Shown one piece after another: positions 4,017-20,079 of a DNA stretch of 64,000 bases (positions are counted from its first letter, which is position 1; each line of letters starts with the position of its first letter). The notes below the pieces were generated by a model. It saw nothing but the letters and a program-made list of their open reading frames with translations. It was not told the DNA's origin and made no database searches. The translations under genes were made by a program, and so were the position numbers. The DNA is taken from the NCBI GenBank assembly GCA_035501175.1, contig DATJWQ010000058.1, positions 213 to 64,212 of the forward strand, written 5' to 3'. This DNA is from Verrucomicrobiia bacterium. Its GTDB lineage: Bacteria; Verrucomicrobiota; Verrucomicrobiia; Palsa-1439.

Positions 4017-5474
4017 CTAGAACTTGACGTTCAGTTCCGCTCGGACTTCTTCCGCCGTGCGGCTTACGCCGGCGTTCTCATACGCGGTTCCGGGCAGGAA
4101 CGCCGCGTACACGAGCTGGGCGCGAACGTCCTTGCTGTAGTCGTAGCCAAGGATGCCGTCGATTTCCCAGCCGAGATAGGCGTCGTCCGCCGTGTTGCCA
4201 GCCGCGAGCTCGGCCCAGCGGGGGCCACCCCAGTCGACGTTGCCGTTGCTGCCGGCAAGGCCCATCTTGTCCGCCTTCATGTAGTAATAGCCCTCAACTG
4301 AGAGTGTCGTATTCTCGTACGGCTTCACCGACGCGCCCAGGTTGAAGATCGCAATGTCCGTCAGGGCGGGCATGAACAGATAGCCGTTGTACCCGTCAGC
4401 GTAATCGAACCACGGACGGAACTGGCCATTGCCAATTCCCTGATCGTCGGTTCCCTTGCCGCCGCCGGAGGCGTAGATGAAGTTTCCGTTGATAACCGGT
4501 ACCCATTGCACATCCTTGAACGTGAACTTGCCGCCCCCGTTCAACAGGAAGGCTCCGATCGTGCCGGAAGAATCTCCGCCGTTCGGTCCGCCATTGGCGC
4601 CAAACTCATACGCCGCTTCCCACCAGGTCTGCAGCGCATCCAAGGGATTGATATCGGCACGTAAACCGACAATCATCGGAGAGCTGGCTCCGTAGCTCGG
4701 AGGCACGCGGCTCGTGGTAAACGGACCCGTCCCAGGACCACCAAGGCCGCTGGAACTCTGTGAGAGATAACCAAAATACGCTTCAATATCCTTGAGCGCT
4801 GAATCGCTCAGCTCATACCGGGCATTGACGAACAGCAGATCGTTCCCGCCCAGATGGCTCGGCTCTCCGCCAAACGCCTGGTTGTTCACCACTTCGGCGC
4901 CGACGAGATCGATCGTCAATGGGTAGTAGTCGAGGACGAGACGAGCGGCATCATAATTGTATTCCTGCTCGACGCTGCTGAGAATCAGCCCGCGGCCGTA
5001 TTGCAGAAATTGCCGACCGAGCTTGAGCGTGGCCGGTGTGTAGAAGACTTCATTGAATTGAACATAGGCTTCCGCAATGCCCACGCCCCACATCCGGCTG
5101 ACCTTGCCGATATCGCTGGGACTGCTGGACGATTGTCCTGCTCCTGTTCCCGCGCCTACGGAGTCGGAAACGTCCGTGCTGCCCTGTCCCCATTCGCCTT
5201 CCGCCTGCAGGGTGACCACTACGAGCACATGGTCTTCGAGGTCCGCTTCACAGGAGACCCGGGTCCGCTGGGCAATGAACGACTCGTTGCCCTTGTACTG
5301 ACCCTCTGTTCCCTGCACGTTTCCCTCGTCGACGCTCTGCACCCCCGTGCTATCGAGAAAATACCCGCGGATTCGGATGTCCCCGCTAAGGCGGATATTC
5401 TGGACATCGGCGAAAGTCTTGCTGGCCAATCCCCCCAGGGTTGCCAGTGCGACTACTAGCCATAGTTTCTTCAC
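4017..5474 (-). CDS. Outer-membrane beta-barrel, alginate export (AlgE-like) family
   Basis: Signal peptide, SGDIRIRG, EAYVQF, LKLGRQFLQYGRGLIL, YLGWEID, C-terminal Phe; GTG 5474 with AAGGAGG RBS. Confidence 0.75.
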   Translation of the reverse strand: MKKLWLVVALATLGGLASKTFADVQNIRLSGDIRIRGYFLDSTGVQSVDEGNVQGTEGQYKGNESFIAQRTRVSCEADLEDHVLVVVTLQAEGEWGQGSTDVSDSVGAGTGAGQSSSSPSDIGKVSRMWGVGIAEAYVQFNEVFYTPATLKLGRQFLQYGRGLILSSVEQEYNYDAARLVLDYYPLTIDLVGAEVVNNQAFGGEPSHLGGNDLLFVNARYELSDSALKDIEAYFGYLSQSSSGLGGPGTGPFTTSRVPPSYGASSPMIVGLRADINPLDALQTWWEAAYEFGANGGPNGGDSSGTIGAFLLNGGGKFTFKDVQWVPVINGNFIYASGGGKGTDDQGIGNGQFRPWFDYADGYNGYLFMPALTDIAIFNLGASVKPYENTTLSVEGYYYMKADKMGLAGSNGNVDWGGPRWAELAAGNTADDAYLGWEIDGILGYDYSKDVRAQLVYAAFLPGTAYENAGVSRTAEEVRAELNVKF

Positions 5475-5785
5475 TGTGTCCTCCTTATGTTTGTTTACGT
5501 TCGTTGTGCTACACGCCACAAGTCTTTGATTTTCGTTCGTTTAGAGGGCCCGCGCCAACGACAATCCTCCATTGCCGTGGTACTACAAGAACGCCATCCC
5601 GAAGCGGAACTGAACCTCCCTCTCCTAACTGTTGTCGAGTATAGACCCGACCCAAATCGTGTCAAGCCCGTTTTCCGAGCGCTCCAGACCTGCCATGCGC
5701 ACTCGGGTCCAAACCGCTTCTGCCCAGGTCCTCTAACCGTCACGAGTATAAAAACGCGCCTGCGGAAGTCAAGCGGCCGAAATCA

Positions 5786-6499
5786 CTATTTCGGCGTGCT
5801 TGCGGTCGGCAACTGTAAGACACCGGAAGTGCCTGTGGACAAAGGTGTTGCGGATTGATCCGTCGCCTTTTCAGGCTGTATGTCGCGGTTAAGAACCATC
5901 ATGCGCAGGTACGCCTTCTCGAACCACGGTGTTCCCTGCCCTCCAGCCAGAATCTCCTCGTACAACTGTCGCGCTTCCTTCTTCTGCCCCTGCAATTCCA
6001 TGCACCGCGCCAGCCCCATCCGCGCCGCCTTCCCAATATAGCTGCCCGGATCCCCACTAATGATCTGCATGTACTCGGCTTTGGCCCCTTCAATGTTCCC
6101 TTGCGCCTCTAGCGCCTGCGCCAAACCGATCTTGCTCGATACCCCCAACGGATGACCGGGATAATCACGAATAATGGATTGGTAAGTGCTTGCCGCATCG
6201 CTATATCGGCCGTTGCGATAATACACCTCCGCCAGCCGCGCCAGAGCCTCGGGCGCAACCGGCGACTTCGGGAAATCACGAGCCACAGCCTGTAATGACG
6301 CTGCGTCAGTCGCCATCGCGAACCTCTCCACCGCTTGCTCGGCCTGATACGCTGCCTGATGCTGCCAATACATCACCAACAGCCCCAGCGCCACAATGCC
6401 AATCACCACTCCCGTGACCTGCTTTCCGTGCTTCTCCCAGAAAACCTCAAAGTCGAACTCGTCCGTTATCCGTAAATCGTCTTGCGCTTGTGATGCCAT
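5786..6499 (-). CDS. Single-pass membrane TPR protein (YfgM-like)
   Basis: FWEKHGKQV followed by an N-terminal TM helix and TPR helices (ALARLAEVYYRNG, IGLAQALEAQG, ARMGLARC). Confidence 0.7.
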   Translation of the reverse strand: MASQAQDDLRITDEFDFEVFWEKHGKQVTGVVIGIVALGLLVMYWQHQAAYQAEQAVERFAMATDAASLQAVARDFPKSPVAPEALARLAEVYYRNGRYSDAASTYQSIIRDYPGHPLGVSSKIGLAQALEAQGNIEGAKAEYMQIISGDPGSYIGKAARMGLARCMELQGQKKEARQLYEEILAGGQGTPWFEKAYLRMMVLNRDIQPEKATDQSATPLSTGTSGVLQLPTASTPK

Positions 6500-7280: not shown

Positions 7281-8048
7281 TCAGGATACTCCTGTCGATC
7301 GTCTCCGCCGCCACTCCCGCCAGACCAATCGGAAAAATCCCATGTCGTCCCGCAGATACCGACGCCAGAGCCGACGCGGTTCCTGCGCCAAACGATACAG
7401 CCATTCCATGCCCACGCGCTGGACCCATTTCGGGGCGCGCTTGAGCACTCCCGCAGTCACATCGAAACTCCCACCCACGCCCATCACAAACGGCACGGCC
7501 ATTTCCTTCTTCCACTTACCCAAAAACAGTTCCTGCTTGGGCGAACCGACCGCCATGCACAGCACATCCGGCTTCACCCGCTTGATCTCGTCCACCACGC
7601 CCGCTTCTTCCTCGGGCTTCCAATAACCGTTCCGCCAGCCCGCAAATTCCAGCCTCGGATACCGGGCTTTCAGCACATCGACCGCCTTCGACACAATCTC
7701 CTGCCGCGCGCCCAACAGATACGGATGTAGCCCCCGTTCCGCGCACCGACCCATCAGCGCATCGAACAAATCCACGCCCGTCACCCGCTCCTTGATCGGG
7801 CAACCGAATAATCTCGACGCCCAGATCACCGGCTGGCCGTCCACCGTGATCAGATCGCAATCGAGCACCGTCTGACGCAAGCTCGGGTTGGTGTCCATCT
7901 TGACGAGCTTGTCGACGTTGACGACCACGTGCTGGTGAATCCCGCCGTCCTTGACCATCGCCTCGATCCGATCGAGGACCTCGGTCATGTTCAGGTTGTC
8001 GATGGGAATGCCAAACAGCGTGACCTTGTCTGAGGCAGGAGCATTCAC
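7281..8048 (-). CDS. WecB/TagA/CpsF (GT26) glycosyltransferase, copy 1
   Basis: VVNVDKL, DGQPV, RVTGVDL, NGY, GSPKQE, GVGGSFD, RAPKWVQRVGMEWLYRLAQEPRRLWRRY; GTG 8048 overlaps the wecB stop (GTGA). Confidence 0.92.
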   Translation of the reverse strand: MNAPASDKVTLFGIPIDNLNMTEVLDRIEAMVKDGGIHQHVVVNVDKLVKMDTNPSLRQTVLDCDLITVDGQPVIWASRLFGCPIKERVTGVDLFDALMGRCAERGLHPYLLGARQEIVSKAVDVLKARYPRLEFAGWRNGYWKPEEEAGVVDEIKRVKPDVLCMAVGSPKQELFLGKWKKEMAVPFVMGVGGSFDVTAGVLKRAPKWVQRVGMEWLYRLAQEPRRLWRRYLRDDMGFFRLVWREWRRRRSTGVS

Positions 8049-9151
8049 TTCCGAATCGGCAGCTCCAGTAAGCACTGTATGATCCGTGACGCCGCCTTCC
8101 CGTCCCAATACTTCGGCACACGCCCCTTCTTGCCCTTCCCGTCCAGAACTTTCGTGGCCTCGGCCACGATCTTGTCCCGATCCATCCCCACCAATGTGCT
8201 CGTCCCCTCCGTCACGGTCACGGGCCGGTCGGTGTTCTCGCGCAGCGTCAGGCACGGCACGCCCAACACGGTCGTTTCCTCCTGGATTCCGCCCGAATCG
8301 CTCAGCACCAGCTTCGCGCCAGTCATCAGACAGAGCGAATCGAGATAACCCAATGGCTCGACAAGCCGCAGGTTCGGCCATTCGCTGACCCGCTTCCAAA
8401 ACCCGAATTCGTTCAGCCGTGCCCGCGTCCGCGGATGGACCGGGAAGGCCAGCGGCAGCCGCTTCTGGATCGCTTCCAACGCCGACAAGATCCCCGCCAG
8501 CGTGTCTTTCGAATCGACGTTCCCCGGCCGATGCAACGTGACGTACCCGTATTCGGAATTCAGCCCGAGCTTTTGCCGAATGTCCGATTTCAAGCTTTCA
8601 TCGCGCAGCTTCAACAGCGTGTCGATCATCACGTTGCCGACGAAGAAAATCTTCTCCCTCGGCACCCCTTCCCGCAACAAATTCGCGTCCGCATCCGCGC
8701 ACGTCGTAAAGCAATAGTCGCTCAGCGCATCGGTCACGAGGCGGTTGATCTCCTCCGGCATCGTGCGGTCGAAACTCCGCAGACCCGCTTCCACGTGCGC
8801 CAGTGGGATGCACAATTTCGCCGCCACCAACGCCGCCGCCAGCGTGGAATTCACGTCGCCCACCACCATCACCAAATCCGGCCGCTGCGCCACGAGCAAC
8901 TTCTCCAGCTCGACCATCACCCGCGCAGTCTGCTCGGCGTGGGTGCCCGAGCCGACTCCCAGGTACACATCCGGTTTTGGCAGCCGCAACTGCTCGAAGA
9001 ACAGGTTCGACATGTTGTCGTCGTAATGCTGCCCCGTGTGCACCAGCACCGGCGCAAAATCGTCCGGATGACGCGCGTACTCCGCCATCAGCGGCGCCAT
9101 TTTCATGAAATTCGGCCGCGCGCCCACCACGTTGACGATCCGCATCTTCAT
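8045..9151 (-). CDS. wecB: UDP-N-acetylglucosamine 2-epimerase (non-hydrolyzing)
   Basis: VVGARPNFMK, HTGQHYD, GDVNS, HVEAGLRS, PEEINR, DSGGIQEE; ATGA overlap with the upstream gene. Confidence 0.95.
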   Translation of the reverse strand: MKMRIVNVVGARPNFMKMAPLMAEYARHPDDFAPVLVHTGQHYDDNMSNLFFEQLRLPKPDVYLGVGSGTHAEQTARVMVELEKLLVAQRPDLVMVVGDVNSTLAAALVAAKLCIPLAHVEAGLRSFDRTMPEEINRLVTDALSDYCFTTCADADANLLREGVPREKIFFVGNVMIDTLLKLRDESLKSDIRQKLGLNSEYGYVTLHRPGNVDSKDTLAGILSALEAIQKRLPLAFPVHPRTRARLNEFGFWKRVSEWPNLRLVEPLGYLDSLCLMTGAKLVLSDSGGIQEETTVLGVPCLTLRENTDRPVTVTEGTSTLVGMDRDKIVAEATKVLDGKGKKGRVPKYWDGKAASRIIQCLLELPIRK

Positions 9152-10176
9152 TTGTCTCGCTCGATTACCGCCAACAGTTCCGCCAGCGCGTAATACATCC
9201 ACGCTTGCGTCCACCGCATGTAACTCAATCGATTGATTCCACGGCGCCCGCGTTGATACCAGAAGAATCCCCGATTGTCCCACATGTTTTCCACCGCCCA
9301 GTTGGCGACGCGCACGGCGTCGTCCACCCGTCCGAATGCCAGGAACGTCACAATCCCTTGCGCGCTGCAATGGGTATCGAACGGATACTCCTCATTGTGA
9401 TAGTAGCGCGGCGCGCCATCCGTCCGCCAGAACGTCTTCTCCCAAAACGCAAACCCGCGCTCGGCGCTCCCGGCAAAATCAGGGTCGCCCGTCTTCGCTT
9501 CGTATTCCTTCAGCGCCACGAGGCTGTAGCCGGTGTGAAAATTGTCGATCCAATGCTGGTTCTCTGACTCGCCGTACCACCACGAACCATCCGCCCGCTG
9601 ACGCTTCACCGAAAATTCCATGCAATCCTTCCGACCCAGCAGCGCCGCCCCCACCATGTTCACGTTGTGCACCTGCGTGTCGGAATGCGCGATGTACTTC
9701 AGCCACCGTTCACCGTTCCGTTCGCACAACAAATCTCGTTCGAGAAAACTCACGTCGCAGGGCCGATTTATCCGCTCGTACGCCCGCGCCGCAAACGCCG
9801 TGCAAATCAGATTCGGCGTGCCGCGCGGCGCATAAAACGCGCGCGATTGCCACGCAAATGGATACGCCCATCCGCCTTCCGGCCCGCGCAACGATTCGAG
9901 TTGATCCAGGAGCCGTTCGTCGCGGCTTCCGAGCGCCGCGAGCGCCAGCGCTTTGGGATTCAGGCTCGGACGAATTCCGCACAGTGCCCGCAGATTGACC
10001 GGGCTGCGTCGATGCAATTGGGTCCAGGCCTGCCGCGCCAGTTTTCCCGGCAACAGCCCCGCCAGCGGCGAACTCAATCCGTCGTACGGGTCGTATCCCC
10101 GCCACCCGCGCATCGTCCCGTACTCGTGCAACTTCTGCCAAATCTCACGGAGCCGTTCGCGTTCAGCCGGTTTCAT
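9148..10176 (-). CDS. Conserved hypothetical protein of polysaccharide loci, probable (alpha/alpha) toroid fold
   Basis: GYDPYDG, WAYPFAWQSR, PNLICT, VHNVN, WIDNFHTGY, DTHCSAQGI, YMRWTQAWM; coupled into the operon; start uncertain (10176, 10200 or 10227). Confidence 0.65.
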   Translation of the reverse strand: MKPAERERLREIWQKLHEYGTMRGWRGYDPYDGLSSPLAGLLPGKLARQAWTQLHRRSPVNLRALCGIRPSLNPKALALAALGSRDERLLDQLESLRGPEGGWAYPFAWQSRAFYAPRGTPNLICTAFAARAYERINRPCDVSFLERDLLCERNGERWLKYIAHSDTQVHNVNMVGAALLGRKDCMEFSVKRQRADGSWWYGESENQHWIDNFHTGYSLVALKEYEAKTGDPDFAGSAERGFAFWEKTFWRTDGAPRYYHNEEYPFDTHCSAQGIVTFLAFGRVDDAVRVANWAVENMWDNRGFFWYQRGRRGINRLSYMRWTQAWMYYALAELLAVIERDK

Positions 10177-10257
10177 CAGCAGCGGTAGTGTATCATTCAC
10201 CTCGGAGCCGGCCAATCGCCTCCGCACACGGCGTCCCGCCCAACGGGTCCGCCGTAC

Positions 10258-11049
10258 TTACTTTGCCGCTCCCACAAATTTGTCCTGCTTCCACAGTCCG
10301 CTCTCCACCTTGTCGTTGGGATATGTCATCTTGCCCGCGCCGTCCATCTTCCCGTCGCGGAATTGCCCGACGTATTTGCGGCCATCGGGCCACGTCATCG
10401 TCCCGGTGCCGTCCGGCAAATCGGTCATCCCGTTGGTCACCTTCCAGTCTCCAACGTACCGCCGCCCGTCCTTCCAGCGTATGCTCCCGCTGTTGTGGGA
10501 GCCGTCGGTGTTCCACGTGCCGTCTTCTCGGGTGCCATCCAAACCGATCAAGGTTCCGCTGACCTTGTATTCATTGCCCGCGCGCCACTCGCCTTGCTGG
10601 ATCGTTCCATTGGGCGCTGTCACCTCTCCCATCCCATCGGGTCGACCGTTCTTGAATTCCCCGCTGTACTGCCGGCCGTCCGGCGCGGTGCTGGTTCCCT
10701 GACCATTGGGCTGCCCGTCGCGAAGCTCACCGACATACTTCCTGCCGTCCGGTGACGTAATCGTGCCTTTCCCATTCGGTTGGCCATCCTTAAACTCGCT
10801 CACATACTTCGTACCATTTGGCATCGTGCTCACACCCTGGCCATTCGGCCTGCCATTCTTGAATTCACCCACGTACTCCGCGCCGCTCGGCAGGATCTCC
10901 GTCCCATGGCCCTCGGGCTTGCCGTTCTTCATTTCGCCAATGTATTTCGCCCCGTTCGGCAACGTGTTCGTGACCTGCCCGAGGCACGTGCCAACAAGCA
11001 CGGACGCCGCAGAAATTGTCGAAAGCAACCACGCGAATCTGTTTATCAT
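10258..11049 (-). CDS. Exported MORN-repeat protein
   Basis: Signal peptide, then repeated (K/E)Y(V/I/S)GE(F/M/L)(K/R)(N/D)GxPxGxG units; AGGAG RBS before ATG 11049. Confidence 0.88.
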   Translation of the reverse strand: MINRFAWLLSTISAASVLVGTCLGQVTNTLPNGAKYIGEMKNGKPEGHGTEILPSGAEYVGEFKNGRPNGQGVSTMPNGTKYVSEFKDGQPNGKGTITSPDGRKYVGELRDGQPNGQGTSTAPDGRQYSGEFKNGRPDGMGEVTAPNGTIQQGEWRAGNEYKVSGTLIGLDGTREDGTWNTDGSHNSGSIRWKDGRRYVGDWKVTNGMTDLPDGTGTMTWPDGRKYVGQFRDGKMDGAGKMTYPNDKVESGLWKQDKFVGAAK

Positions 11050-11067
11050 GTTGTCTCCTGACACCCG

Positions 11068-13143
11068 TTACAATTCAATCGCCCGTCCTGTCCGAATCGA
11101 TTCCACCACTGCCAGCGTCGCCCGCGTGCTGTCCACGATTTCCTCCAGCGGAATCGGCATCGGCCCGCCAGTTTTGACCGCGTGCACAAACTGCCTCACT
11201 TCTTCCGCCTGGCCCTTGTCGCGAAAATCGTCCACCACCACATGCCGGCCGCCACCAAACGCTTCGAAGTGTTCCTTGCCCAGCGACGCATCCGCGACGT
11301 CAAAGTAATCGATCGATCCCACCGATCCGTCGGCGAACCGAATCGCCACCTGGACGTTCTCGCCGCCGAATCCCTGCGCGAAGACCGACACGATTCGGGA
11401 CCGGGCGGCGAACCGCAGGAAATCGATAAAATGGCACGCTTCCGCAAGAATGCGCCCGCCGCCCGCCTCGGGGTCGTTGATCCAATGATCCGCCGGCAGC
11501 GGCTGCACGCTGACGCGATATCGCATCACCAGGGGCCCGGCCAATTCCCGCGCCTTCGCCGCAAACGGAGCAAAGCGTCGATTGAACCCCACCATCAACC
11601 GCCAATTCCCGCTCTTCTGGATTGCCTCGGCAATTCCATCAAGCTCTTCCCGGCGCAGACACAGCGGCTTTTCGCAGAATACCGCCTTCCCGGCCCGCAA
11701 CGCTTCGACAACGATCCTGGCGTGCAAATCGTGCCGCGTCGCAATCACCACGGTGTTGATCGTTTTGTCCGCCAGTACATCCCGCCAATTGGTCGTGCTC
11801 GTTTCAAATCCAAATTTGTCCTTCGCCTTTTCCGCCTTCACCCCGGTCGCCGTGCACACTGTCCGCAACGTCACGTCCCCATTCGTTCTGAACTGGGGCA
11901 ACAATACACCTTGCGCGTAATGCCCCGCCCCGATCACGCCCACGCTTACCGGGGACGACGCCCGGCCTACCGACGATCGCTGCAGGGTCGCCACTGATTG
12001 CGTCGCGCCGCCCTTGCTCTCGGGATACTGCAGCAATACACCGACAAATCGTTGCTCGGTCTTCCCCGTAATCAATTCGTATGCCTTGGCCGCGTCCTGA
12101 ATCGGAAACGTGTGCGTCATTAATGGCGCAACGTCCACGCGCCGGCCCGCCAGCAACTGAACGAACGCCTCCATGTTCCGCTGCTCCGTCCAGCGCACGT
12201 ACCCAATCGGATAATCCACACCCTTCTCTTCGTACAGCGGATCGTAGCGGCCCGGGCCGTAACTGCGGGACAACCGGAACTCGAGTTCCTTCTCGTAAAA
12301 CATATCGCGCGGAAGCTCCATCCCTGTCACGCCCACCATCACCACCCGCCCGCGCTCCCGACAAATCTTCGCGGCCAACTCGATGGGGTCATTCGTCGGC
12401 GCCGCGGCGGTGATGATCGCCGCATCCACACCGAACTCATTCGTCAATCGCGCCGCCAACCGCTCAACATCACCGCTCGTCCGCGTCGCCACCGCGTCGC
12501 ACCCGCAGCGCTTCGCCAGTTCGCACGCCTCGGCGCTGACGTCGACCCCCAATACCACGCAACCCGCCGCCTTCGCAATCTGCACGGTCAATTGTCCGAC
12601 CAAACCCAGACCGATCACCGCAACAGATTCACCAAGACGCACGTCCGCCTGCCGCACACCTTGCATCGCAATCGCACCCAGGGTCGTAAATGCCGCGTGT
12701 TCCAACGGCACGCCGTCCGGCACCCTGGCGCAAAGATTCTGCGGAACCACCACCTCCTCGGCATGGCTCGCGTAATCCTGTCCGCCGCAGGCCACGCGGT
12801 CGCCGACGGACAACCCCGTTACGCCTTCGCCAACCTCGACGATCGTCCCCGCGCATGAGTAACCGAGCGCTTTCCATTGATCGAGGCGCGACTGGACCTT
12901 CCGCACCGCGGCGGAAATCCCTTCGCGTTTCACCGTGTCGAGAACGCGCCTGACCAGATCGGGTCGCGACCGCGCCTTGCCGACGAGCGATTGCTGCGCG
13001 AGACTGACCGTGGCGCGCTCCGTCCCCGCGCTGACCAGGGAGAACGCGTTGCGCACACGCACACTGCCCGGCGCCAGCGCCGGTGACGGCACATCCACCA
13101 GCTTGATGTCACCGGTCTTGAAGTCCTGGACGAGTTGTTTCAC
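11068..13143 (-). CDS. Bi-domain oxidoreductase (Zn-ADH/MDR fused to Gfo/Idh/MocA)
   Basis: SAGTE, GYSCAG, IGLGLVG, SRSYGPGRYD in the N-domain; IGAGHYA, ATRHDLH, CEKPL, VGFNRRF in the C-domain. Confidence 0.9.
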   Translation of the reverse strand: MKQLVQDFKTGDIKLVDVPSPALAPGSVRVRNAFSLVSAGTERATVSLAQQSLVGKARSRPDLVRRVLDTVKREGISAAVRKVQSRLDQWKALGYSCAGTIVEVGEGVTGLSVGDRVACGGQDYASHAEEVVVPQNLCARVPDGVPLEHAAFTTLGAIAMQGVRQADVRLGESVAVIGLGLVGQLTVQIAKAAGCVVLGVDVSAEACELAKRCGCDAVATRTSGDVERLAARLTNEFGVDAAIITAAAPTNDPIELAAKICRERGRVVMVGVTGMELPRDMFYEKELEFRLSRSYGPGRYDPLYEEKGVDYPIGYVRWTEQRNMEAFVQLLAGRRVDVAPLMTHTFPIQDAAKAYELITGKTEQRFVGVLLQYPESKGGATQSVATLQRSSVGRASSPVSVGVIGAGHYAQGVLLPQFRTNGDVTLRTVCTATGVKAEKAKDKFGFETSTTNWRDVLADKTINTVVIATRHDLHARIVVEALRAGKAVFCEKPLCLRREELDGIAEAIQKSGNWRLMVGFNRRFAPFAAKARELAGPLVMRYRVSVQPLPADHWINDPEAGGGRILAEACHFIDFLRFAARSRIVSVFAQGFGGENVQVAIRFADGSVGSIDYFDVADASLGKEHFEAFGGGRHVVVDDFRDKGQAEEVRQFVHAVKTGGPMPIPLEEIVDSTRATLAVVESIRTGRAIEL

Positions 13144-14237
13144 GGTTCCAACAGTCCTTTGGCGCGAAGTTCCTGCACGATCCCCAGAAAACGCCTGGCT
13201 TGCTCGGTATTGCCAACGGTCACGCGCAGCAAGCCTTTCATCTGCGGCACCGCATCCTTGTTGCTCACGTACACCCGGCGCGCGGCCAGCACTTTCACAG
13301 CCTGCGCCGGATCATGCACCTGCCAGAGAATGAAATTGGTCGAGGTGTTGTAAACGCCAAATCCAAGCTCCTTCAACCCTTCCACGATTTCACCTCGCGC
13401 GTTGGCGCATTCCGCCACGGTCCGTCGCATGTAATCAAGGTCGCTCAGCGCCGCATGCGCGGCAATTTGCGTCAAACCGCTGACCGCCCACGGCGCCAGC
13501 ACGCGCTGGAGAATCTCTCGCACCGCCGGCTGGGCCACGACGTAGCCGCATCGCATCCCGGCCAGCGAGAACGCCTTGGAAAACGAGCGCAGCACCATCA
13601 GGGTCGGGTGTTCTACAATCAATCCCACGCTGCTGTGGCCATAGTATTCGACGTACGCTTCGTCCAACACGATGAGGGAATCCCGCCTCTCCTTCAACAG
13701 GGAGACAATTCGCTCCTGCGGATAACCAACGCCCGTCGGGTTGTTGGGGTTGGTCAGATAGGTCAGCTTGCGCGTTCCGTCCTTGGCGAGCAGCTCCGTG
13801 AAATCGGGCTCGAACGGTTTGCTGAATAGGAACGGCTCGATCCGCGCCTGCTGTAGTTTGCATTGCACCGCGAACACCGCGTACGCCGGCGACACAATCT
13901 GCACCGGGTCGTCCTTCGCCAGGAACGCGCGCGCAATCAGCTCCATGACCATGTTGGAGCCGTTGGCGACGAGCACGAATTCCGCCGGCACGTTCAGATA
14001 CTGCCCGATGGCTTTCCGCAATGCCGTGCACTCACTGTCGGGATACCAGTTCAGCGATACGTCGCCATCGACCGCCGCGCGCAGGGCCGCCATCACTCGC
14101 GGCGACGGGGGCGTCTGGCATTCGTTCAGGTCCATCTTCAGCACGTCCGGACCACCGGCCACCGGCTCGACCGCATGATAACCGTCCATGGCCGCCACGT
14201 GCGGTGGCACCCACTGATTGATCGGAAAATCGCTCAT
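13140..14237 (-). CDS. Histidinol-phosphate aminotransferase-like PLP enzyme (HisC/CobD family)
   Basis: DLNE, WYPD, NGS, NPNNPTG, DEAYVEY, RSFSKAFSLAGMRCGY; ATG 14237 overlaps the PHP stop (ATGA). Confidence 0.85.
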   Translation of the reverse strand: MSDFPINQWVPPHVAAMDGYHAVEPVAGGPDVLKMDLNECQTPPSPRVMAALRAAVDGDVSLNWYPDSECTALRKAIGQYLNVPAEFVLVANGSNMVMELIARAFLAKDDPVQIVSPAYAVFAVQCKLQQARIEPFLFSKPFEPDFTELLAKDGTRKLTYLTNPNNPTGVGYPQERIVSLLKERRDSLIVLDEAYVEYYGHSSVGLIVEHPTLMVLRSFSKAFSLAGMRCGYVVAQPAVREILQRVLAPWAVSGLTQIAAHAALSDLDYMRRTVAECANARGEIVEGLKELGFGVYNTSTNFILWQVHDPAQAVKVLAARRVYVSNKDAVPQMKGLLRVTVGNTEQARRFLGIVQELRAKGLLEP

Positions 14238-15001
14238 CCCGGGAATTCTTTCCGTACCGGCTCGTGCGACTGGCGTTCGATTTGACGCTGCACGCGCAGC
14301 CAGTTTACCTTTTTGGCGCAATTGCGCAATGTTTTCGGGAGCAGTTTGCGCACCCGCGGAGCCGTGTTGGCGCGAAAGGCCGAATCGGCGGCATGCAGCG
14401 CCGTCAGGTCCTGCGCCGGCCCGAACAACTTCCGCGCCGCCCGACGCAGCACCTCCGTCGTCAGCTCGCCGGAAACCTCCGGGAATTCCACACATGCCCG
14501 CCCCACATCCACCGCATAATGCGCATCGCTGCCTGCCAGCGCCGCCAGGCCACACTCGCGCGCCAGTCGTGCTGCCGACTCGTTGCGCTCCGTCGGCTCG
14601 TACCCGTTGCAAACTTCAACGGCATCCACCTTCCGCAGCAGTTCCTCATCGATACCTTCCCGTAATAATCCCGATATCGGATTGAATGGATGCGGCAACA
14701 CCACGAAACCCTGTTGCGCGCGAATCTCATCGATTGCTTCCGGCAAAGTGCGCGACGCAATCTTCCGCTCCAAAAACAAGCCGATCAAGTGAGCCCCACC
14801 TCTCAGTGAAATCTCCGTGCCGACAATGACTGCCATGCCGAGGCTCTTCTCTCGCGCGCGCAACGCACCCTCGATCTCGTCGTGGTCCGTGATCGCCATG
14901 TGGGTCAAGCCGCGTCGGGAGGCCTGTTCGAGCACCGCGTCCACCGCTGCAAAACTGTCGTGTGAGTGACACGTATGGCAATGGAGGTCGGCGCGGATCA
15001 T
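14234..15001 (-). CDS. PHP-domain phosphoesterase
   Basis: DLHCHTCHSHDS, ITDHD, GTEIS, HLIG, PHPF, EVCNG, GSDAH. Confidence 0.88.
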   Translation of the reverse strand: MIRADLHCHTCHSHDSFAAVDAVLEQASRRGLTHMAITDHDEIEGALRAREKSLGMAVIVGTEISLRGGAHLIGLFLERKIASRTLPEAIDEIRAQQGFVVLPHPFNPISGLLREGIDEELLRKVDAVEVCNGYEPTERNESAARLARECGLAALAGSDAHYAVDVGRACVEFPEVSGELTTEVLRRAARKLFGPAQDLTALHAADSAFRANTAPRVRKLLPKTLRNCAKKVNWLRVQRQIERQSHEPVRKEFPG

Positions 15002-16320
15002 CGTTTCACCAGCGACACCACGTTGCGAATCTTGCCGCTCGGCTCGGGTTGAATATGGTCGACCAACTCAAAATCAATCTGCACGCCGCTGCCAAGAAAA
15101 CGCGCCAGCTTGCTCCGTAACTCGTCGGTCTCTTCACCGTTGAACGGGCGGGTCGGCACGAGACGCACCACGACGCTGTTCGGCTCGGTTTGCACGACCT
15201 GGAACTGGCGCACTTTTTCATACGTCTCGAACAACGTGTAAAAGCGTACCGAGGGAACGTATTTCTGTTCGCCCGTGACAATCGTGTCGTTGACGCGTCC
15301 GAGGATTCCCGCGATGCAGGGCAGACCCCGCCCACACTCACAGGGCTTTTCGGCCGGCAACGCCAGATCTCCCATGTCATATCGAATGAGGGGCATTGCG
15401 TGATTGATCAATCCCGTGCCGACCATTCGCTGGCCGGCCTCGCGTGCGCCGTCGGCCAATGGGACCAATTCAAGAATCCCGCTTTCCCCATTGATGTGAA
15501 ACTCACCGCGCTGTTCGCACTGGCAGGCAGTGACAACCCGCTCGTTGCCACCCCACCAGTCGTACACGGAGCACTGCAGCACCCGCTCGATGACCGACCG
15601 CATCTCCGGCGAGAGCGTCTCGCTGGAGGTCAGCACGGAGCGCGGCGCGTGCACGCGCAGGCCTTCGCTGGCGGCAAACTGCGCGAAAATATAGATCGAC
15701 GAGGGATAGCCGCGAACGAACTCGGGCCGGTAGCGGTTGAATTGCTCCACGTACGCGCGCAGGTTCGCCGGCTTCATGTCGTACACACTGAAAAACAGCG
15801 TCCGGGTGCGATGATCCAGATGCCACAGCGGATCGGTCTCGCGCTTGGGAATATAATGGCGGAACGCGACGATGCGCGACCCGGTGCGATACCCGGCCCA
15901 TCGCCAGAACCGGATCGAATGCGCCATCTCGCAGGCCTTCTGCTCTGCCGTGAGGTAGAATCGCAACGGCTCGCCTGTCGATCCGCTCGTGTGGTCCTCA
16001 ATCAGGCGGCTCTGATCGGCATAGCGATGGAGGAACTGTTCGGGATTCTCCCGCAATTGTTGCTTTTCCAATATGGGCAGTCGGGCGAGATCGGACAAAT
16101 CCTGGAAATCGTCCGGCGTCGCGCCGAGCTTCTGGAATAACGCCCGGTAATATGGGACGTGCTCGTAAACGTCGCGCAACAGCCAGCGCATCTGAGCCAC
16201 TTGCCGCGCGCGGAATTCACTCGCGGAGAGCCACTGGGTCCGGCGCATCTCGCGGTAGTAGCGCCAACAGCCATGCAAATAGCGCCGGACCACTCCGGGT
16301 TGTGCGCGAGAGGCCATCAT
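14998..16320 (-). CDS. Phenylacetate-CoA ligase-family (CapK-like) adenylating enzyme
   Basis: VPYYRALF, LPILEKQQLR, TSGSTGEP, GYPSS, MPLIRYDMGD, ILGRVND; start set at ATG 16320. Confidence 0.85.
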   Translation of the reverse strand: MMASRAQPGVVRRYLHGCWRYYREMRRTQWLSASEFRARQVAQMRWLLRDVYEHVPYYRALFQKLGATPDDFQDLSDLARLPILEKQQLRENPEQFLHRYADQSRLIEDHTSGSTGEPLRFYLTAEQKACEMAHSIRFWRWAGYRTGSRIVAFRHYIPKRETDPLWHLDHRTRTLFFSVYDMKPANLRAYVEQFNRYRPEFVRGYPSSIYIFAQFAASEGLRVHAPRSVLTSSETLSPEMRSVIERVLQCSVYDWWGGNERVVTACQCEQRGEFHINGESGILELVPLADGAREAGQRMVGTGLINHAMPLIRYDMGDLALPAEKPCECGRGLPCIAGILGRVNDTIVTGEQKYVPSVRFYTLFETYEKVRQFQVVQTEPNSVVVRLVPTRPFNGEETDELRSKLARFLGSGVQIDFELVDHIQPEPSGKIRNVVSLVKR

Positions 16321-16346: not shown

Positions 16347-17876
16347 TTAATAGGCCCCGCGACCGCGTGCCACCACCGAGATCGTCCGGGCAATCAGATA
16401 CAAATCCAGCCATACCGACCAATTACGAATGTAGTAGGTATCCAACCGCTGCTGGACTTCGATGTCACCCTCGCTCCGGGCACTGACCTGCCAGAGCCCT
16501 GTGACTCCCGGCAGCACCCGGTGCCGGAGTTCCCGGAATTTTGCGTCAAACGCCTGCAAATGATAATCCGGGAACGGACGCGGCCCCACCAGGCTCATCT
16601 GACCCCGGATCACATTCCATAATTGGGGAAGTTCATCGAGACTGAACTTGCGGAAGAACTTCCCTACAAACGGCAGAATCCGCGGGTCGTTCTTCAATTT
16701 GAAATAGCGCTGCCATTCGTTGCGCGCTTCGGGGTCGCGCTCCAGGAGCTCGGCCAGCCGCCGGTCGGCATCCAGGTACATCGTGCGCAACTTCCAAATA
16801 CGGATGCGACGGCCACCAAGCCCTTCTCGTTCCTGGCCATAGAACGGATTTCCGGGACTAACCAGCTGAATCCAGGCCATCAGCAGCAGCAGCAGGGGTG
16901 CAAGCAAGATGATCAGCGGGATCGCCACAACAAGATCGAGAGTCCGTTTGGTCCATCGGTTCGTGGCAATCAGCAGGTTGTGTCGAATCTCCAACCCAAG
17001 AATCCCCCCCACGTCCCGCGCCACAATCCATAGGCTTGCCAGACCCGCCAGGTCCGGAATGACCATCATGTGCGGGAAACAATCGCCATACTCCTGATGA
17101 ACATCGAACATCCGTTTATTGGAACCCTCATCAAGCGCAACGATGCAATAGGGGATCTTCCGCGTCCGTCCCAACTGTTTGGCTCGATTCAATCCTCCCA
17201 GGATCGGCACGCCGTCGATCTCCGGCTCGGCCCCGGGTGTGTCAGTCAGGATCGCCACCGGTTTCAAGCCGAGTTCGGGCTGGTTTAGCAGAATATCGAT
17301 CACCCGACGGGCTGTCCTCCCTGAACCGAAAATCACCACCGACGACCCCCACCAACTTCGCCGTGAGCAGATGTTCCGCACCAGTGCGCGGCCGCAAGGC
17401 ACGAGCACCAACGCGAGGAGCCAGGCAACCCCCACAATCAAACGTGAGACGAATAGAAAACCCAGCACACTGTAGATGCCCACCACCGCGGTCAGGCACG
17501 CCCACGTTGTCCCCACCGTGATTCGCCGCAATTCCTCCACCGGTGTGAGGAAGATCCTCGCGGTGACACCCGCCCCGCGGTACAGACCCTGAATGGCGAA
17601 CGCCATGATCCAAATGAAGAGCCCGGGCCACAACCGCAGATAGCGGGGATAATCGAAGTGACCAAGGACCATAAATCTCACGAGCATGCCGGTTCCCCAG
17701 GCAACAGCCAAACTGATGAGATCGGTCATCACCAACAGGAACATCATGGCCCAGGGTCGAGTGGACCGCACCACTCGGGAAAGCACCGGAACTCGTTCCC
17801 CACTCACGGCAAGCGCCTCCGGCACACCCGCACGCTCCTCGTTTGAATTCTCCTGCACGGAAGGTGTCGCTCCCAT
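16347..17876 (-). CDS. wbaP: Undecaprenyl-phosphate hexose-1-phosphate transferase (WbaP family, priming transferase)
   Basis: N-terminal TM helices, KRTLD, KLRTM, KLKNDPRI, SLDELPQLWNV, SLVGPRP, PGVTGLWQVSAR, YIRNWSVWLD. Confidence 0.9.
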   Translation of the reverse strand: MGATPSVQENSNEERAGVPEALAVSGERVPVLSRVVRSTRPWAMMFLLVMTDLISLAVAWGTGMLVRFMVLGHFDYPRYLRLWPGLFIWIMAFAIQGLYRGAGVTARIFLTPVEELRRITVGTTWACLTAVVGIYSVLGFLFVSRLIVGVAWLLALVLVPCGRALVRNICSRRSWWGSSVVIFGSGRTARRVIDILLNQPELGLKPVAILTDTPGAEPEIDGVPILGGLNRAKQLGRTRKIPYCIVALDEGSNKRMFDVHQEYGDCFPHMMVIPDLAGLASLWIVARDVGGILGLEIRHNLLIATNRWTKRTLDLVVAIPLIILLAPLLLLLMAWIQLVSPGNPFYGQEREGLGGRRIRIWKLRTMYLDADRRLAELLERDPEARNEWQRYFKLKNDPRILPFVGKFFRKFSLDELPQLWNVIRGQMSLVGPRPFPDYHLQAFDAKFRELRHRVLPGVTGLWQVSARSEGDIEVQQRLDTYYIRNWSVWLDLYLIARTISVVARGRGAY

Positions 17877-17881
17877 AATCG

Positions 17882-18658
17882 TCAGTTCCCCACCGCCTCG
17901 CGGCGGTCAGTTCCCGAGAACAATTGCCACGCGACCAGCCACATGAACCGCGGATTGTTCTTGAAATAGCGCCGCCACAGTCGGCGCGGGTCCATGAGGA
18001 GCCGAAACAGCCATTCCAAGCCGGACCGCTGCATCCAGCGAGGCGCCTGGCGAACCCGGCCGGCGTGAAAATCAAACGCGGCACCGACCGCCACCATCAC
18101 GGCCTTCACGCGGTCCCGATGCGCCGCGACCCAATACTCCTGCTTCGGACAACCCAGCCCAACCAAAAGAATGCGTGCCCCCGACGCGTTGATGGCCTTC
18201 ACAACCGCCTCATCTTCCTCATGTGTCAGCGGCCGAAACGGCGGTGAGTAGGAGTACGCAATCTGAAGCTTGGGAAACCGCTCCTGGTAGGTCTTCCGCA
18301 ACGCATCGAGAACTTCTGCTGTCCCTCCGTACAACCCAACCGAGATGCCCGCATCTTCTGCGGCTCGCAATACGTTCAGCGTCAGGTCTGGCCCGTACAC
18401 GCGATTCTGGTCCTTGATTCCCAGTCGCCGCAGCGCCCATACCAGCGGCATGCCGTCCGGCGTCACCAGGTCCGCGCCGTTGGAGACCTTTTGAAATTCC
18501 GCTGCATCATGGCCTTCCATAACCCCGTGTACTCCGCAAACGCACACATACCGGGAATCACCCGCTTGCGCCCAGCTCACAATGCGCGCCGTCGCGTCGG
18601 CATAGCTCGTCGCGTCCACCCGCGTGCCTAAAATGAAGCGATGTTGGAGATCGGTCAT
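17882..18658 (-). CDS. WecB/TagA/CpsF (GT26) glycosyltransferase, copy 2
   Basis: TPDGMPL, RVYGPDL, YSPPFRP, GLGCPKQE, AVGAAFDF, QAPRWMQRSGLEWLFRL. Confidence 0.92.
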   Translation of the reverse strand: MTDLQHRFILGTRVDATSYADATARIVSWAQAGDSRYVCVCGVHGVMEGHDAAEFQKVSNGADLVTPDGMPLVWALRRLGIKDQNRVYGPDLTLNVLRAAEDAGISVGLYGGTAEVLDALRKTYQERFPKLQIAYSYSPPFRPLTHEEDEAVVKAINASGARILLVGLGCPKQEYWVAAHRDRVKAVMVAVGAAFDFHAGRVRQAPRWMQRSGLEWLFRLLMDPRRLWRRYFKNNPRFMWLVAWQLFSGTDRREAVGN

Positions 18659-18707
18659 CACAGCGTGTGGTACTCCGCTGTCACTCGTACCATAGGGCCT
18701 CTGGAAT

Positions 18708-18723
18708 AGCAATTGGCCTACCA
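18708..18723 (-). promoter_or_regulatory. Possible sigma54 (-24/-12) promoter for the GT26-wbaP-capK operon
   Basis: Minus strand TGGTAGGCCAATTGCT has exact GG-N10-GC spacing and TTGC, but 2 mismatches to TGGCAC. Confidence 0.3.
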
Positions 18724-18851
18724 AAGCGGAATGAAACGAGTAAACCGCAACCGGCTCTGCACGAATACGTTCCATTAATGAGACGGCCCAAATGCGGCGC
18801 CGCCAACACGATGCAGCGCAATCTACAGTCTGCTGTTCGCCAAATGCCCGC

Positions 18852-19841
18852 TCAGGCCACTTTGGCGCTCTTCATCGACGACTTGACCTGCGTCTCGATC
18901 CAGGCGTACGTGCGAGCCATGCCGTCTTCGAGGGAAATCTCGGGCTCCCATTTGAGGACCTCACGAAGCTTCGTGTTGTCCGAGTTGCGACCCCGCACGC
19001 CCTGGGGACCATCAATGTGCTTCTTGTTGACCGTGATGCCGGCAATCTTGGCCGCCATGTCGGCAAGCTGATTGATTGTCACCATCCGGTCCTGGCCCAG
19101 ATTCAACGGATCGCGGTGGTCGGAACGCATCAGCTTGTAGATGCCGTTGACGCAATCATCGATGTAACAGAACGACCGGGTTTGTTCGCCGTCGCCCCAG
19201 ATTTCAATTTCGTGTTTGCCGGTAAGCTTGGCGATCGCCACCTTGCGGCACATCGCCGCCGGCGCTTTCTCGCGTCCGCCATCCCACGTTCCCAGCGGAC
19301 CGAAAATATTATGGAACCGCACGATGCGCGTCTCCAGTCCATAGTCCTGCCGATAATGCATGCAAGCGCGCTCGGTGATGAGTTTTTCCCAGCCGTATGC
19401 ATCCTGCGGATACGCGGGATAGGCGTCGTCCTCCTTCAACGGGACCACGTTGGCATCCATCTGTTTGAACTCAGGGTAGATACAGGCCGACGATGTGTAG
19501 AAGTAGCGTTTGACGCTGTTCACGTGCGCGGCGTCCAGCGTGTGAATGTTGATCAGCAAATTGTTGTGCAGAATCAGCGCATGATGGTGCGAGATGAATC
19601 CCATCCCGCCCATGTCGGCCGCCAACGCGTACACTTCGTCCACGCCACGCGTCGCCTGCAAGCAGTTGTCCCACCGCCGCAGATCCAAAACCTCAAACTC
19701 GTCGGCATCCGTCGGGGAGTATTCCGGGTACTTGAGGTCAACGCCCCGTACCCAATAGCCCTTGCCCTTGAGAAACGTCACCAGATGATGGCCGATAAAC
19801 CCACCGGCGCCGGTCACGAGTACCTTGGTCTGCTCTTTCAC
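18852..19841 (-). CDS. GDP-mannose 3,5-epimerase-like NAD-dependent epimerase
   Basis: GAGGFIG, LAADMGGMGFI, TSSACIYP, PQDAYGWEK, RFHNIFGP, GGREKAPAAMCRK, IWGDGEQTRSF; GTG 19841 with AAGGGAG RBS. Confidence 0.85.
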   Translation of the reverse strand: MKEQTKVLVTGAGGFIGHHLVTFLKGKGYWVRGVDLKYPEYSPTDADEFEVLDLRRWDNCLQATRGVDEVYALAADMGGMGFISHHHALILHNNLLINIHTLDAAHVNSVKRYFYTSSACIYPEFKQMDANVVPLKEDDAYPAYPQDAYGWEKLITERACMHYRQDYGLETRIVRFHNIFGPLGTWDGGREKAPAAMCRKVAIAKLTGKHEIEIWGDGEQTRSFCYIDDCVNGIYKLMRSDHRDPLNLGQDRMVTINQLADMAAKIAGITVNKKHIDGPQGVRGRNSDNTKLREVLKWEPEISLEDGMARTYAWIETQVKSSMKSAKVA

Positions 19842-20079
19842 AATATCTCCCTTGTTCGTCGGTTCGGCCACGGCGATTCTTGACCCGGATGGGGCATCTG
19901 CGGAGGAAATTCTGCCTCACGATCCGCTGGCATTCTGACGGTCCGCTGTCGCGGTACCCGCCCTCACCGACGATTTTGTTTCCTGGCTTGCTTTCCCTGT
20001 CGTTCGCCGCGACGAAACACCGTCGCGAGCGAATCAGTTGATTGGACAATATATCAGCGAGAACTGCTCAAGACAAGGC

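Follow-up and report, generated by a model that had tools for sequence, protein, structure and literature searches.

A 64,000-nucleotide stretch of the genome of a soil member of the Verrucomicrobiia (lineage Palsa-1439; assembly GCA_035501175.1, contig DATJWQ010000058.1, positions 213 to 64,212; hereafter the window) carries three coupled minus-strand genes that most likely form one tailoring unit in an operon predicted to make a lipid-linked, WbaP-initiated exopolysaccharide. The genes encode a 440-aa CapK/VpsH-like adenylate-forming ligase (14998–16320; ANL superfamily, PaaK-like), a 255-aa metal-dependent phosphoesterase of the PHP family (14234–15001), and a 365-aa pyridoxal 5′-phosphate (PLP) enzyme that is a divergent HisC-family (subfamily I-beta) class I/II aminotransferase (13140–14237). 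With moderate confidence, we propose that the PLP enzyme makes an amino-alcohol phosphate, that the ligase joins it by an amide bond to an N-acetylhexosamine (HexNAc)-uronic acid on a lipid-linked glycan, and that the PHP enzyme removes the phosphate. What is new here is the enzyme set alone; the pathway logic is already known. An earlier reading of the sequence alone (the sequence-only reading) knew of no described pathway with this trio; the same logic is known from Cj1435–Cj1438 of Campylobacter jejuni (PMC11800397) and amidation by a CapK-type enzyme has genetic support in Vibrio cholerae.

In the first step of the proposed scheme, the HisC-family enzyme would yield a small phosphorylated amine, for which serinol phosphate made from dihydroxyacetone phosphate (DHAP) is the simplest candidate. 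Judging from homology, the CapK/VpsH-like enzyme would adenylate a HexNAc-uronic acid, which the lipid-linked glycan already carries, at its C6 carboxylate. The acceptor is probably a residue of the N-acetylmannosaminuronic acid (ManNAcA) or N-acetylgulosaminuronic acid (GulNAcA) type delivered by the WecB, GT26 and VpsJ-like genes of the operon. The phosphorylated amine would attack the acyl-adenylate to give an amide. The PHP phosphoesterase would then remove the phosphate, leaving a neutral amino-alcohol amide.

The sequence-only reading described three genes joined by 4-bp overlaps directly after wbaP. Direct reading of the junctions bears this out, with the ligase gene starting 26 nt past the wbaP stop and ATGA overlaps at both the CapK/PHP and the PHP/aminotransferase boundaries. 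The block that it took to be a trio is nevertheless longer, as it had missed a fourth gene, joined to the aminotransferase gene by a GTGA overlap, that encodes a 691-aa bi-domain oxidoreductase (11068–13143, minus strand).

We compared the window aminotransferase with the other HisC-type enzymes of the genome, whose assembly comprises 96 contigs and is 94% complete. The best NCBIfam match of the window enzyme was hisC (TIGR01141) at 267.8 bits, under the cut-off of 276.55, and its score of 198.4 bits against the CobD model (TIGR01140) did not reach the cut-off of 290.55. The enzyme matched PF00155 with 178.7 bits and keeps the equivalents of K214 and R222, which places it in fold-type I, subfamily I-beta. 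The genome's two other hisC-type genes both exceed the TIGR01141 cut-off (347 and 332 bits). One of them is on contig C62. On contig C84, the other full-scoring hisC lies between hisD and the gene for imidazoleglycerol-phosphate (IGP) dehydratase, hisB; because it sits in a hisD-hisC-hisB operon, the C84 copy is the housekeeping gene, and the window copy is not the genome's only hisC. The statement that the window has no other his genes also holds as far as tested, with hisD and the IGP dehydratase part of hisB found only on C84. The further suggestion that the set consists of repurposed his paralogues stood for the aminotransferase, a third, non-housekeeping member of the HisC family, and failed for the PHP protein, which is not a HisK/HisJ paralogue: it scored 18.5 bits against the HisJ/HisK model (TIGR01856) where 90.2 is required, with a match confined to the N-terminal HxH motif.

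The window enzyme and its orthologues were aligned with the HisC proteins of Escherichia coli and Geobacter (sequences from PDB search output; numbering checked at K214, R222, R322 and R335). The catalytic lysine K214, the PLP-phosphate arginine R222, N157, Y187 and R335 (E. coli numbering) are kept in the window enzyme and its verrucomicrobial orthologues. Y110 is replaced by phenylalanine in all HisC-like trio enzymes aligned, and R322 by serine (glycine in locus L020) in the aligned verrucomicrobial HisC-like enzymes, followed by a conserved Asn-Lys-Asp. In the histidinol-phosphate aminotransferase (HspAT) of Mycobacterium tuberculosis, the tyrosine equivalent to E. coli Y110 (Mtb Y127) contacts the imidazole and separates HspAT from aromatic aminotransferases, and the phosphate is held by two arginines and an asparagine (PMC4703992). 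We conclude that the trio is not part of histidine metabolism, because the genome has its his operon on another contig, the window copy falls short of the HisC cut-off and has altered substrate residues, and the PHP protein does not resemble HisJ.

The PHP protein exceeded the cut-offs of both PF02811 and PF13263 and thus belongs to the PHP superfamily; its nearest families are CehA/McbA and TrpH-type PHP proteins, and it ends in a basic C-terminal tail. Nine residues (H7, H9, D15, H40, E63, H71, H104, D159 and H161) are invariant in the module-linked PHP homologues, and by analogy with YcdX we take these to be candidate metal ligands of a trinuclear site. Shorter relatives with 40–50% identity and without the C-terminal tail occur in loci L056, L057 and L064 and in about 30 other metagenome loci, where the gene is almost always followed by one for an LPG_synthase_TM membrane protein; in two loci the pair adjoins mreB and a murA-like gene. 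The pair is separate and widespread, and apparently unstudied.

The ligase has the same length as its orthologues, and all its matches to the PaaK, DVU_1553 and F390-synthetase models fell far under the cut-offs (for PaaK, TIGR02155, 88.2 bits with a cut-off of 646 not reached); a PDB sequence search matched solved PaaK structures at only about 1e-18. The ANL core is invariant in 12 aligned homologues, comprising T111-S-G-x-T-G116, S232-S-E-T235, G317-D318, G341-R342 and the C-terminal G429-K430. Homologues of the window ligase carry the CapK_C annotation (PF27533). For comparison with the Vibrio polysaccharide (VPS) genes we used a cluster of the same gene order from Vibrio alfacsensis, not V. 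cholerae itself. The CapK_C protein at the VpsH position of that cluster is 28% identical to the window ligase over 408 residues (E 2e-53), and on this full-length homology the window enzyme belongs to the CapK_C/VpsH-like family. In V. cholerae, VpsH, which is PaaK/CapK-like, is required for the glycine amide on the GulNAcA of a lipid-linked disaccharide (PMC13463779). Natural fusions of a CapK_C ligase with a GT26 or GT2 glycosyltransferase domain were found in five proteins of 713–742 aa (P0058, P0091, P0092, P0104 and P0113). A supposed CapK-PLP enzyme fusion, suggested by long open reading frames in the Zoogloea and Massilia loci, was rejected as the frames are artefacts of high G+C content; the upstream genes there encode GT4 glycosyltransferases. 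Four ligase cysteines, C266, C268, C327 and C329, form two CxC motifs (TACQCE and PCECGRG) that do not vary among the module's CapK-like ligases, and the Vibrio and Motilimonas homologues share the second motif; the four cysteines may form a structural metal site. A literature search returned nothing relevant on CapK/phenylacetate-CoA ligase or F390 synthetase in connection with polysaccharide, nor on "bi-domain-containing oxidoreductase".

The neighbourhood of the trio was examined by a pattern scan with one genome per species, which gave 39 loci with a relative of the ligase, onto which the window proteins were mapped by tblastn. Wherever a verrucomicrobial locus is long enough, the CapK, PHP and aminotransferase genes are contiguous in it, usually followed by the oxidoreductase, the 359-aa protein (VpsJ-like, discussed below), WecB and GT26. 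The same arrangement was found in a metagenome-assembled genome (MAG) of Acidobacteriota (39, 30, 32 and 49% identity), and a search from the PHP protein found the same four genes in a Zixibacteria MAG, where their neighbours are of the heparinase II/III-like and GT4 types and include a priming transferase. Metagenome locus L067 has a permuted order, GT4-PHP-CapK-PLP enzyme, with no oxidoreductase adjoining the trio. The arrangement is more than chance, because the same contiguous genes recur in every long-enough related locus and in at least three phyla; the trio is thus conserved, as the sequence-only reading needed it to be.

The presence of the module varies. A close orthologue of the PHP protein (60–85% identity) was found in 13 of the 18 genomes of the genus and 16 of the 45 of the family. 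When 401 genomes sampled evenly across the phylum were searched, the window's own genome alone had a close orthologue, and four weak matches were at 37–41%. On these counts, the module is an accessory cassette that occurs patchily across phyla. CapK-like genes at a greater distance (identity of 37% or less; Planctomycetota, Zoogloea, Massilia and Motilimonas) have no PHP or PLP enzyme beside them, which makes the trio a subtype within the CapK family and not a trait of the family at large. In one related genome, a gene for a 1034-aa Type ISP restriction-modification enzyme is inserted into the module between the oxidoreductase and VpsJ-like genes (L014:15352-18456). In L020, an asparagine synthase-type amidotransferase gene lies between the aminotransferase and the oxidoreductase (L020:13136-15049). 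Asparagine synthase-type genes recur beside CapK-like genes (L020, L011, L029 and L035) and may provide a second amidation activity.

The PLP slot itself is exchangeable, and in loci L009, L055, L063 and L067 it holds a CobD-like enzyme. The L009 enzyme, the only one scored, gave 183.7 bits against CobD (TIGR01140) and 150.8 against hisC, both below cut-off with CobD best, and the enzymes of the other three loci were matched to it. In a tree of PLP enzymes, whose backbone did not resolve, the housekeeping hisC grouped with Geobacter HisC, and the three CobD-like trio members included formed a separate, well-supported clade of their own. Between L009 and the window, identity is 46% for the ligase, 37% for the PHP protein and 21% for the PLP enzyme, compared to 64–70% for the oxidoreductase, VpsJ-like, GT26 and WecB proteins. 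Such co-variation would be expected if the first three proteins dealt with a different amine and the others with the same sugar. The best-known enzymes of the two PLP families, HisC and CobD, both take phosphorylated substrates (histidinol phosphate and threonine phosphate). The swap in the PLP slot and the co-variation in L009 point to a phosphorylated amine as the probable product of the PLP enzyme.

Several observations weigh against our proposal. The verrucomicrobial PLP enzymes are without one of the two arginines that in HisC hold the phosphate or distal carboxylate; the loss of R322 weakens the case for a phosphorylated substrate, and even the phosphate of the amine is uncertain. In NCBIfam the PHP protein comes closest to the CehA/McbA metallohydrolases, a family with carbamate esterases among its members, and the putative phosphatase role follows from family membership. 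The support for VpsH itself is genetic and from liquid chromatography-mass spectrometry only (PMC13463779). The bi-domain oxidoreductase, conserved as it is, has no necessary role in the scheme. The precedent in C. jejuni leans in part on the enzyme families, with Cj1436 and Cj1437 taken to be HisC/CobD family members that act on phosphorylated substrates. The source of the carboxylate is a further difficulty, as neither the window nor, in its closest relatives, the sequence up to 10 kb from the module yielded a nucleoside diphosphate (NDP)-sugar 6-dehydrogenase. The genome's four NDP-sugar dehydrogenases lie elsewhere; one is TuaD-like, one is TviB-like, and none exceeds the WecC cut-off. Because the locus has no 6-dehydrogenase, we infer the acceptor carboxylate from the homology to VpsH and VpsJ.

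An NDP-sugar 6-dehydrogenase was found near the module only in L007, L026 and L028 and in the vps-type loci, and a clean either/or pattern of WecC and the bi-domain oxidoreductase could not be shown across the loci. The oxidoreductase consists of an N-terminal half resembling zinc-type alcohol dehydrogenases (ADH_zinc) and the medium-chain dehydrogenase/reductase (MDR) family (PF00107 and PF08240) and a GFO_IDH_MocA C-terminal half (PF01408 and PF22725), and it follows the trio in loci of Verrucomicrobiota, Acidobacteriota and Zixibacteria. Dehydrogenases of sugars and of inositol are among the matches of its Gfo half, UDP-GlcNAc 3-dehydrogenase being one of them. Reading of the ADH-like half found GYS at the position of the GHE zinc-ligand motif and an insertion of roughly 45 residues, and this half may be a zinc-free MDR domain. 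A PDB sequence search found no solved structure with both halves of the oxidoreductase and none for the VpsJ-like protein. In L009 the oxidoreductase follows the sugar genes and not those for the amine, so that a role on the sugar side is more likely than one in making the amine. Given the lack of WecC in the locus, we hypothesize that it possibly supplies the carboxylate.

The VpsJ-like gene (9148–10227, minus strand) encodes a 359-aa protein with no Pfam or NCBIfam match, assigned by its homology to VpsJ. It is 32% identical to a Colwellia protein named VpsJ (E 2e-61) and 30% identical to the protein at the VpsJ position of the V. alfacsensis cluster (E 4e-63). Many of its database homologues are misnamed "aspartate-semialdehyde dehydrogenase".

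We considered whether the chemistry could run with the opposite polarity. Here the oxidoreductase, PLP enzyme and PHP enzyme would convert a phosphorylated hydroxy acid into a non-standard (hydroxy-)amino acid, in the manner of SerA, SerC and SerB, and the ligase would adenylate that acid and attach it to the glycan, as an ester on a hydroxyl or an amide on an amino group. The phosphorylated serine pathway is indeed a combination of dehydrogenase, aminotransferase and phosphatase, the locus has no uronic-acid dehydrogenase, and small carboxylic acids are what PaaK-like enzymes usually activate, as is the case for PaaK and AjiA1, relatives with solved structures. Even so, we regard this route as unlikely. 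The co-variation of the trio in L009 does not extend to the oxidoreductase, which in L067 does not adjoin the trio either, the VpsJ homologue implies a uronic acid if VpsJ is a C5 epimerase, and the nearest characterised relative of the ligase acts in forming an amide with a sugar C6 carbonyl (PMC13463779, PMC3901696).

Slightly more doubtful still is an amino-sugar route following the logic of WbpB and WbpE, where the Gfo half would oxidise C3 of a UDP-HexNAc or its uronic acid, the HisC-like enzyme would transaminate the resulting keto-sugar, the CapK-like enzyme would N-acylate the amino group so formed, using an activated carboxylic acid, and WecB and GT26 would carry out 2-epimerisation and transfer. 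The aminotransferase and oxidoreductase genes share a GTGA overlap and stay together across phyla, the matches of the Gfo half include UDP-GlcNAc 3-dehydrogenase, and the operon has a WecB-type epimerase; the WbpA/B/E/D/I pathway of Pseudomonas aeruginosa has such a dehydrogenase-transaminase pair with a WecB-family epimerase. This route would leave the PHP enzyme without a role, however, and a CobD-like enzyme, of a decarboxylase type, can replace the transaminase. The pairing of the two genes also has exceptions, as an asparagine synthase-type gene parts them in L020 and the L067 trio has no adjoining oxidoreductase. To our knowledge, the characterised NDP-sugar aminotransferases belong to the DegT/DnrJ/EryC1 family and not to the HisC family, and the characterised homologue VpsH amidates a sugar carboxylate. 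Both of these routes leave more unexplained than amidation of a uronic acid does, namely the CobD-like swap, the PHP enzyme, the VpsH homology and the trio that stands apart from the oxidoreductase. Finally, a HisC and a PHP-type histidinol phosphatase serving housekeeping or back-up histidine biosynthesis, placed in a polysaccharide operon by chance, is highly improbable and was rejected: hisC is the best NCBIfam match, only 9 bits short of its cut-off, and PHP-type histidinol phosphatases exist, yet a complete hisD-hisC-hisB operon lies elsewhere, the specificity residues are altered (Y110 to F and R322 to S), the PHP protein fails the HisJ model, the trio is tied to CapK and polysaccharide genes in three phyla, and its presence varies within the genus.

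Amide linkage of an amino-alcohol to a uronic acid, one of the possibilities raised by the sequence-only reading, is therefore the reading that fits best, on the strength of the CobD-like swap and the homology at the VpsH position; its acceptor is a candidate drawn from homology, with no uronic-acid-forming dehydrogenase in the locus. Overall, that earlier interpretation is partly supported.

The module lies in a long minus-strand operon within a polysaccharide locus, whose ten genes run in the order of transcription from one GT26 gene to another. The upstream copy encodes a glycosyltransferase of the WecG/TagA/CpsF family (17882–18775; PF03808, 219.7 bits), and its position 5′ of wbaP or CapK is kept in related loci. 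It is followed by the gene for the WbaP-type initiating polyprenyl-phosphate hexose-1-phosphate transferase (16347–17876), which scored 440.4 bits against TIGR03022 (cut-off 403) and matched PF02397. After the trio and the oxidoreductase comes a gene for a MORN-repeat protein (10258–11064; PF02493, six repeats), which the window shares with L012, its nearest relative, and with none of the other related loci; it is probably a lineage-specific, recent-looking insertion and not a member of the module. The VpsJ-like gene is joined by an ATGA overlap to a gene for a non-hydrolysing UDP-GlcNAc 2-epimerase of the WecB/VpsA type (8045–9151; TIGR00236, 342.6 bits with a cut-off of 210; PF02350), which is joined in turn by GTGA to the downstream GT26 gene, encoding a WecG/VpsK-type glycosyltransferase of the ManNAc(A)-transferase family (7281–8048; PF03808, 213 bits). 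All of these genes are on the minus strand. A terminator-like hairpin lies past the last gene at 7081-7060. The nearest database relatives of the operon proteins are in Verrucomicrobiia MAGs. Just 5′ of the operon is a gene of the SDR epimerase/dehydratase family (18852–19871, minus strand), whose best NCBIfam match, GDP-L-fucose synthase, reached 130 of the 500 bits required. Downstream are genes for an alginate-export-type outer-membrane porin and a TPR_21 protein (4017–6499, minus strand). That this pair recurs after the module in L009 and L055 suggests a dedicated route of export.

We conclude that the module is an uncharacterised variant of uronic-acid amidation, and that its interest lies in the enzyme set and the exchangeable PLP slot more than in the logic. 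Amides of uronic acids remove negative charge and alter the antigenicity and mechanics of capsules and biofilm matrices, and the experimentally supported routes to them are so far two, the ATP-grasp enzymes of C. jejuni and VpsH of V. cholerae, the latter on genetic evidence only. If our proposal is correct, ligases of the CapK/VpsH type accept dedicated phosphorylated amines besides free amino acids, and the module could serve in the decoration of acidic polysaccharides as an exchangeable enzyme set. The proposal would also account for PHP and HisC-like genes being annotated in such numbers in the polysaccharide loci of soil phyla, and their misannotation as histidine genes could be corrected. 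VpsH-type chemistry and its activation mechanism would gain a tractable biochemical handle. As a more speculative extension, which we consider improbable, the four-gene unit could be a self-contained, horizontally mobile cassette. Its oxidoreductase would carry out C6 oxidation of a carrier-bound HexNAc in place of a WecC-type dehydrogenase, and the other three enzymes would install an unreported amino-alcohol or amino-polyol amide on sugars of the ManNAcA/GulNAcA type, with an exchangeable PLP enzyme and a decoration that varies by lineage.

The module can be compared to four known systems. With histidine biosynthesis it shares two protein superfamilies, HisC and the PHP-type HisJ/HisK, that act consecutively on an amino-alcohol phosphate, and it differs in that neither window protein passes the equivalog model, the HisC specificity residues are changed and the real his operon is elsewhere. 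In cobalamin synthesis, the HisC-fold PLP enzyme CobD makes (R)-1-amino-2-propanol O-2-phosphate, which is then amide-linked to adenosylcobyric acid by CbiB. There too a PLP-made amino-alcohol phosphate is amide-linked to a carboxylate, but onto a different acceptor, by a ligase unrelated to that of the window and with retention of the phosphate; the window enzyme scores 198 bits against the CobD cut-off of 290.

The VPS system resembles the window operon in gene content. In V. cholerae, VpsA, VpsB and VpsK (WecB, WecC and WecG) add ManNAcA to a lipid-linked glucose, and the next step needs VpsJ, which was proposed to be a C5 epimerase of a new class that converts ManNAcA to L-GulNAcA (PMC13463779). 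The V. alfacsensis cluster runs in the order WecB, WecC, GT4, flippase-like, unknown, CapK_C, GT4, VpsJ and GT26. The window operon holds homologues of the VpsH-position protein, VpsJ, VpsA and VpsK together with an initiating phosphoglycosyltransferase. VPS, in contrast, uses free glycine and has neither a PLP enzyme nor a PHP phosphatase; VpsB (WecC) is present in VPS and not in the window locus, whereas the bi-domain oxidoreductase is present in the window and not in VPS.

The glucuronamide pathway of the C. jejuni HS:2/HS:19 capsule shares the logic of the module. Its transaminase Cj1437 converts DHAP to (S)-serinol phosphate, and Cj1436 decarboxylates L-serine phosphate to ethanolamine phosphate; the C-terminal ATP-dependent amidoligase of Cj1438 joins either amine to in-chain glucuronate, and Cj1435 then dephosphorylates the product (PMC11800397, PMC13276843). 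The window ligase is ANL/PaaK-like and not an ATP-grasp enzyme, and the phosphatase is of the PHP and not the HAD family. The window module is coupled to a bi-domain oxidoreductase, and its polymer is predicted to be built on a polyprenol carrier (WbaP type), compared to the Kps ABC-transporter route of C. jejuni. On our proposal, both systems nonetheless follow the same three steps of PLP enzyme, ATP-dependent amide ligase and phosphatase, both have transaminase-type and decarboxylase-type alternatives for the PLP enzyme, and in both there are fusions of a glycosyltransferase with the ligase, CapK_C with GT26 or GT2 in one and Cj1438 in the other.

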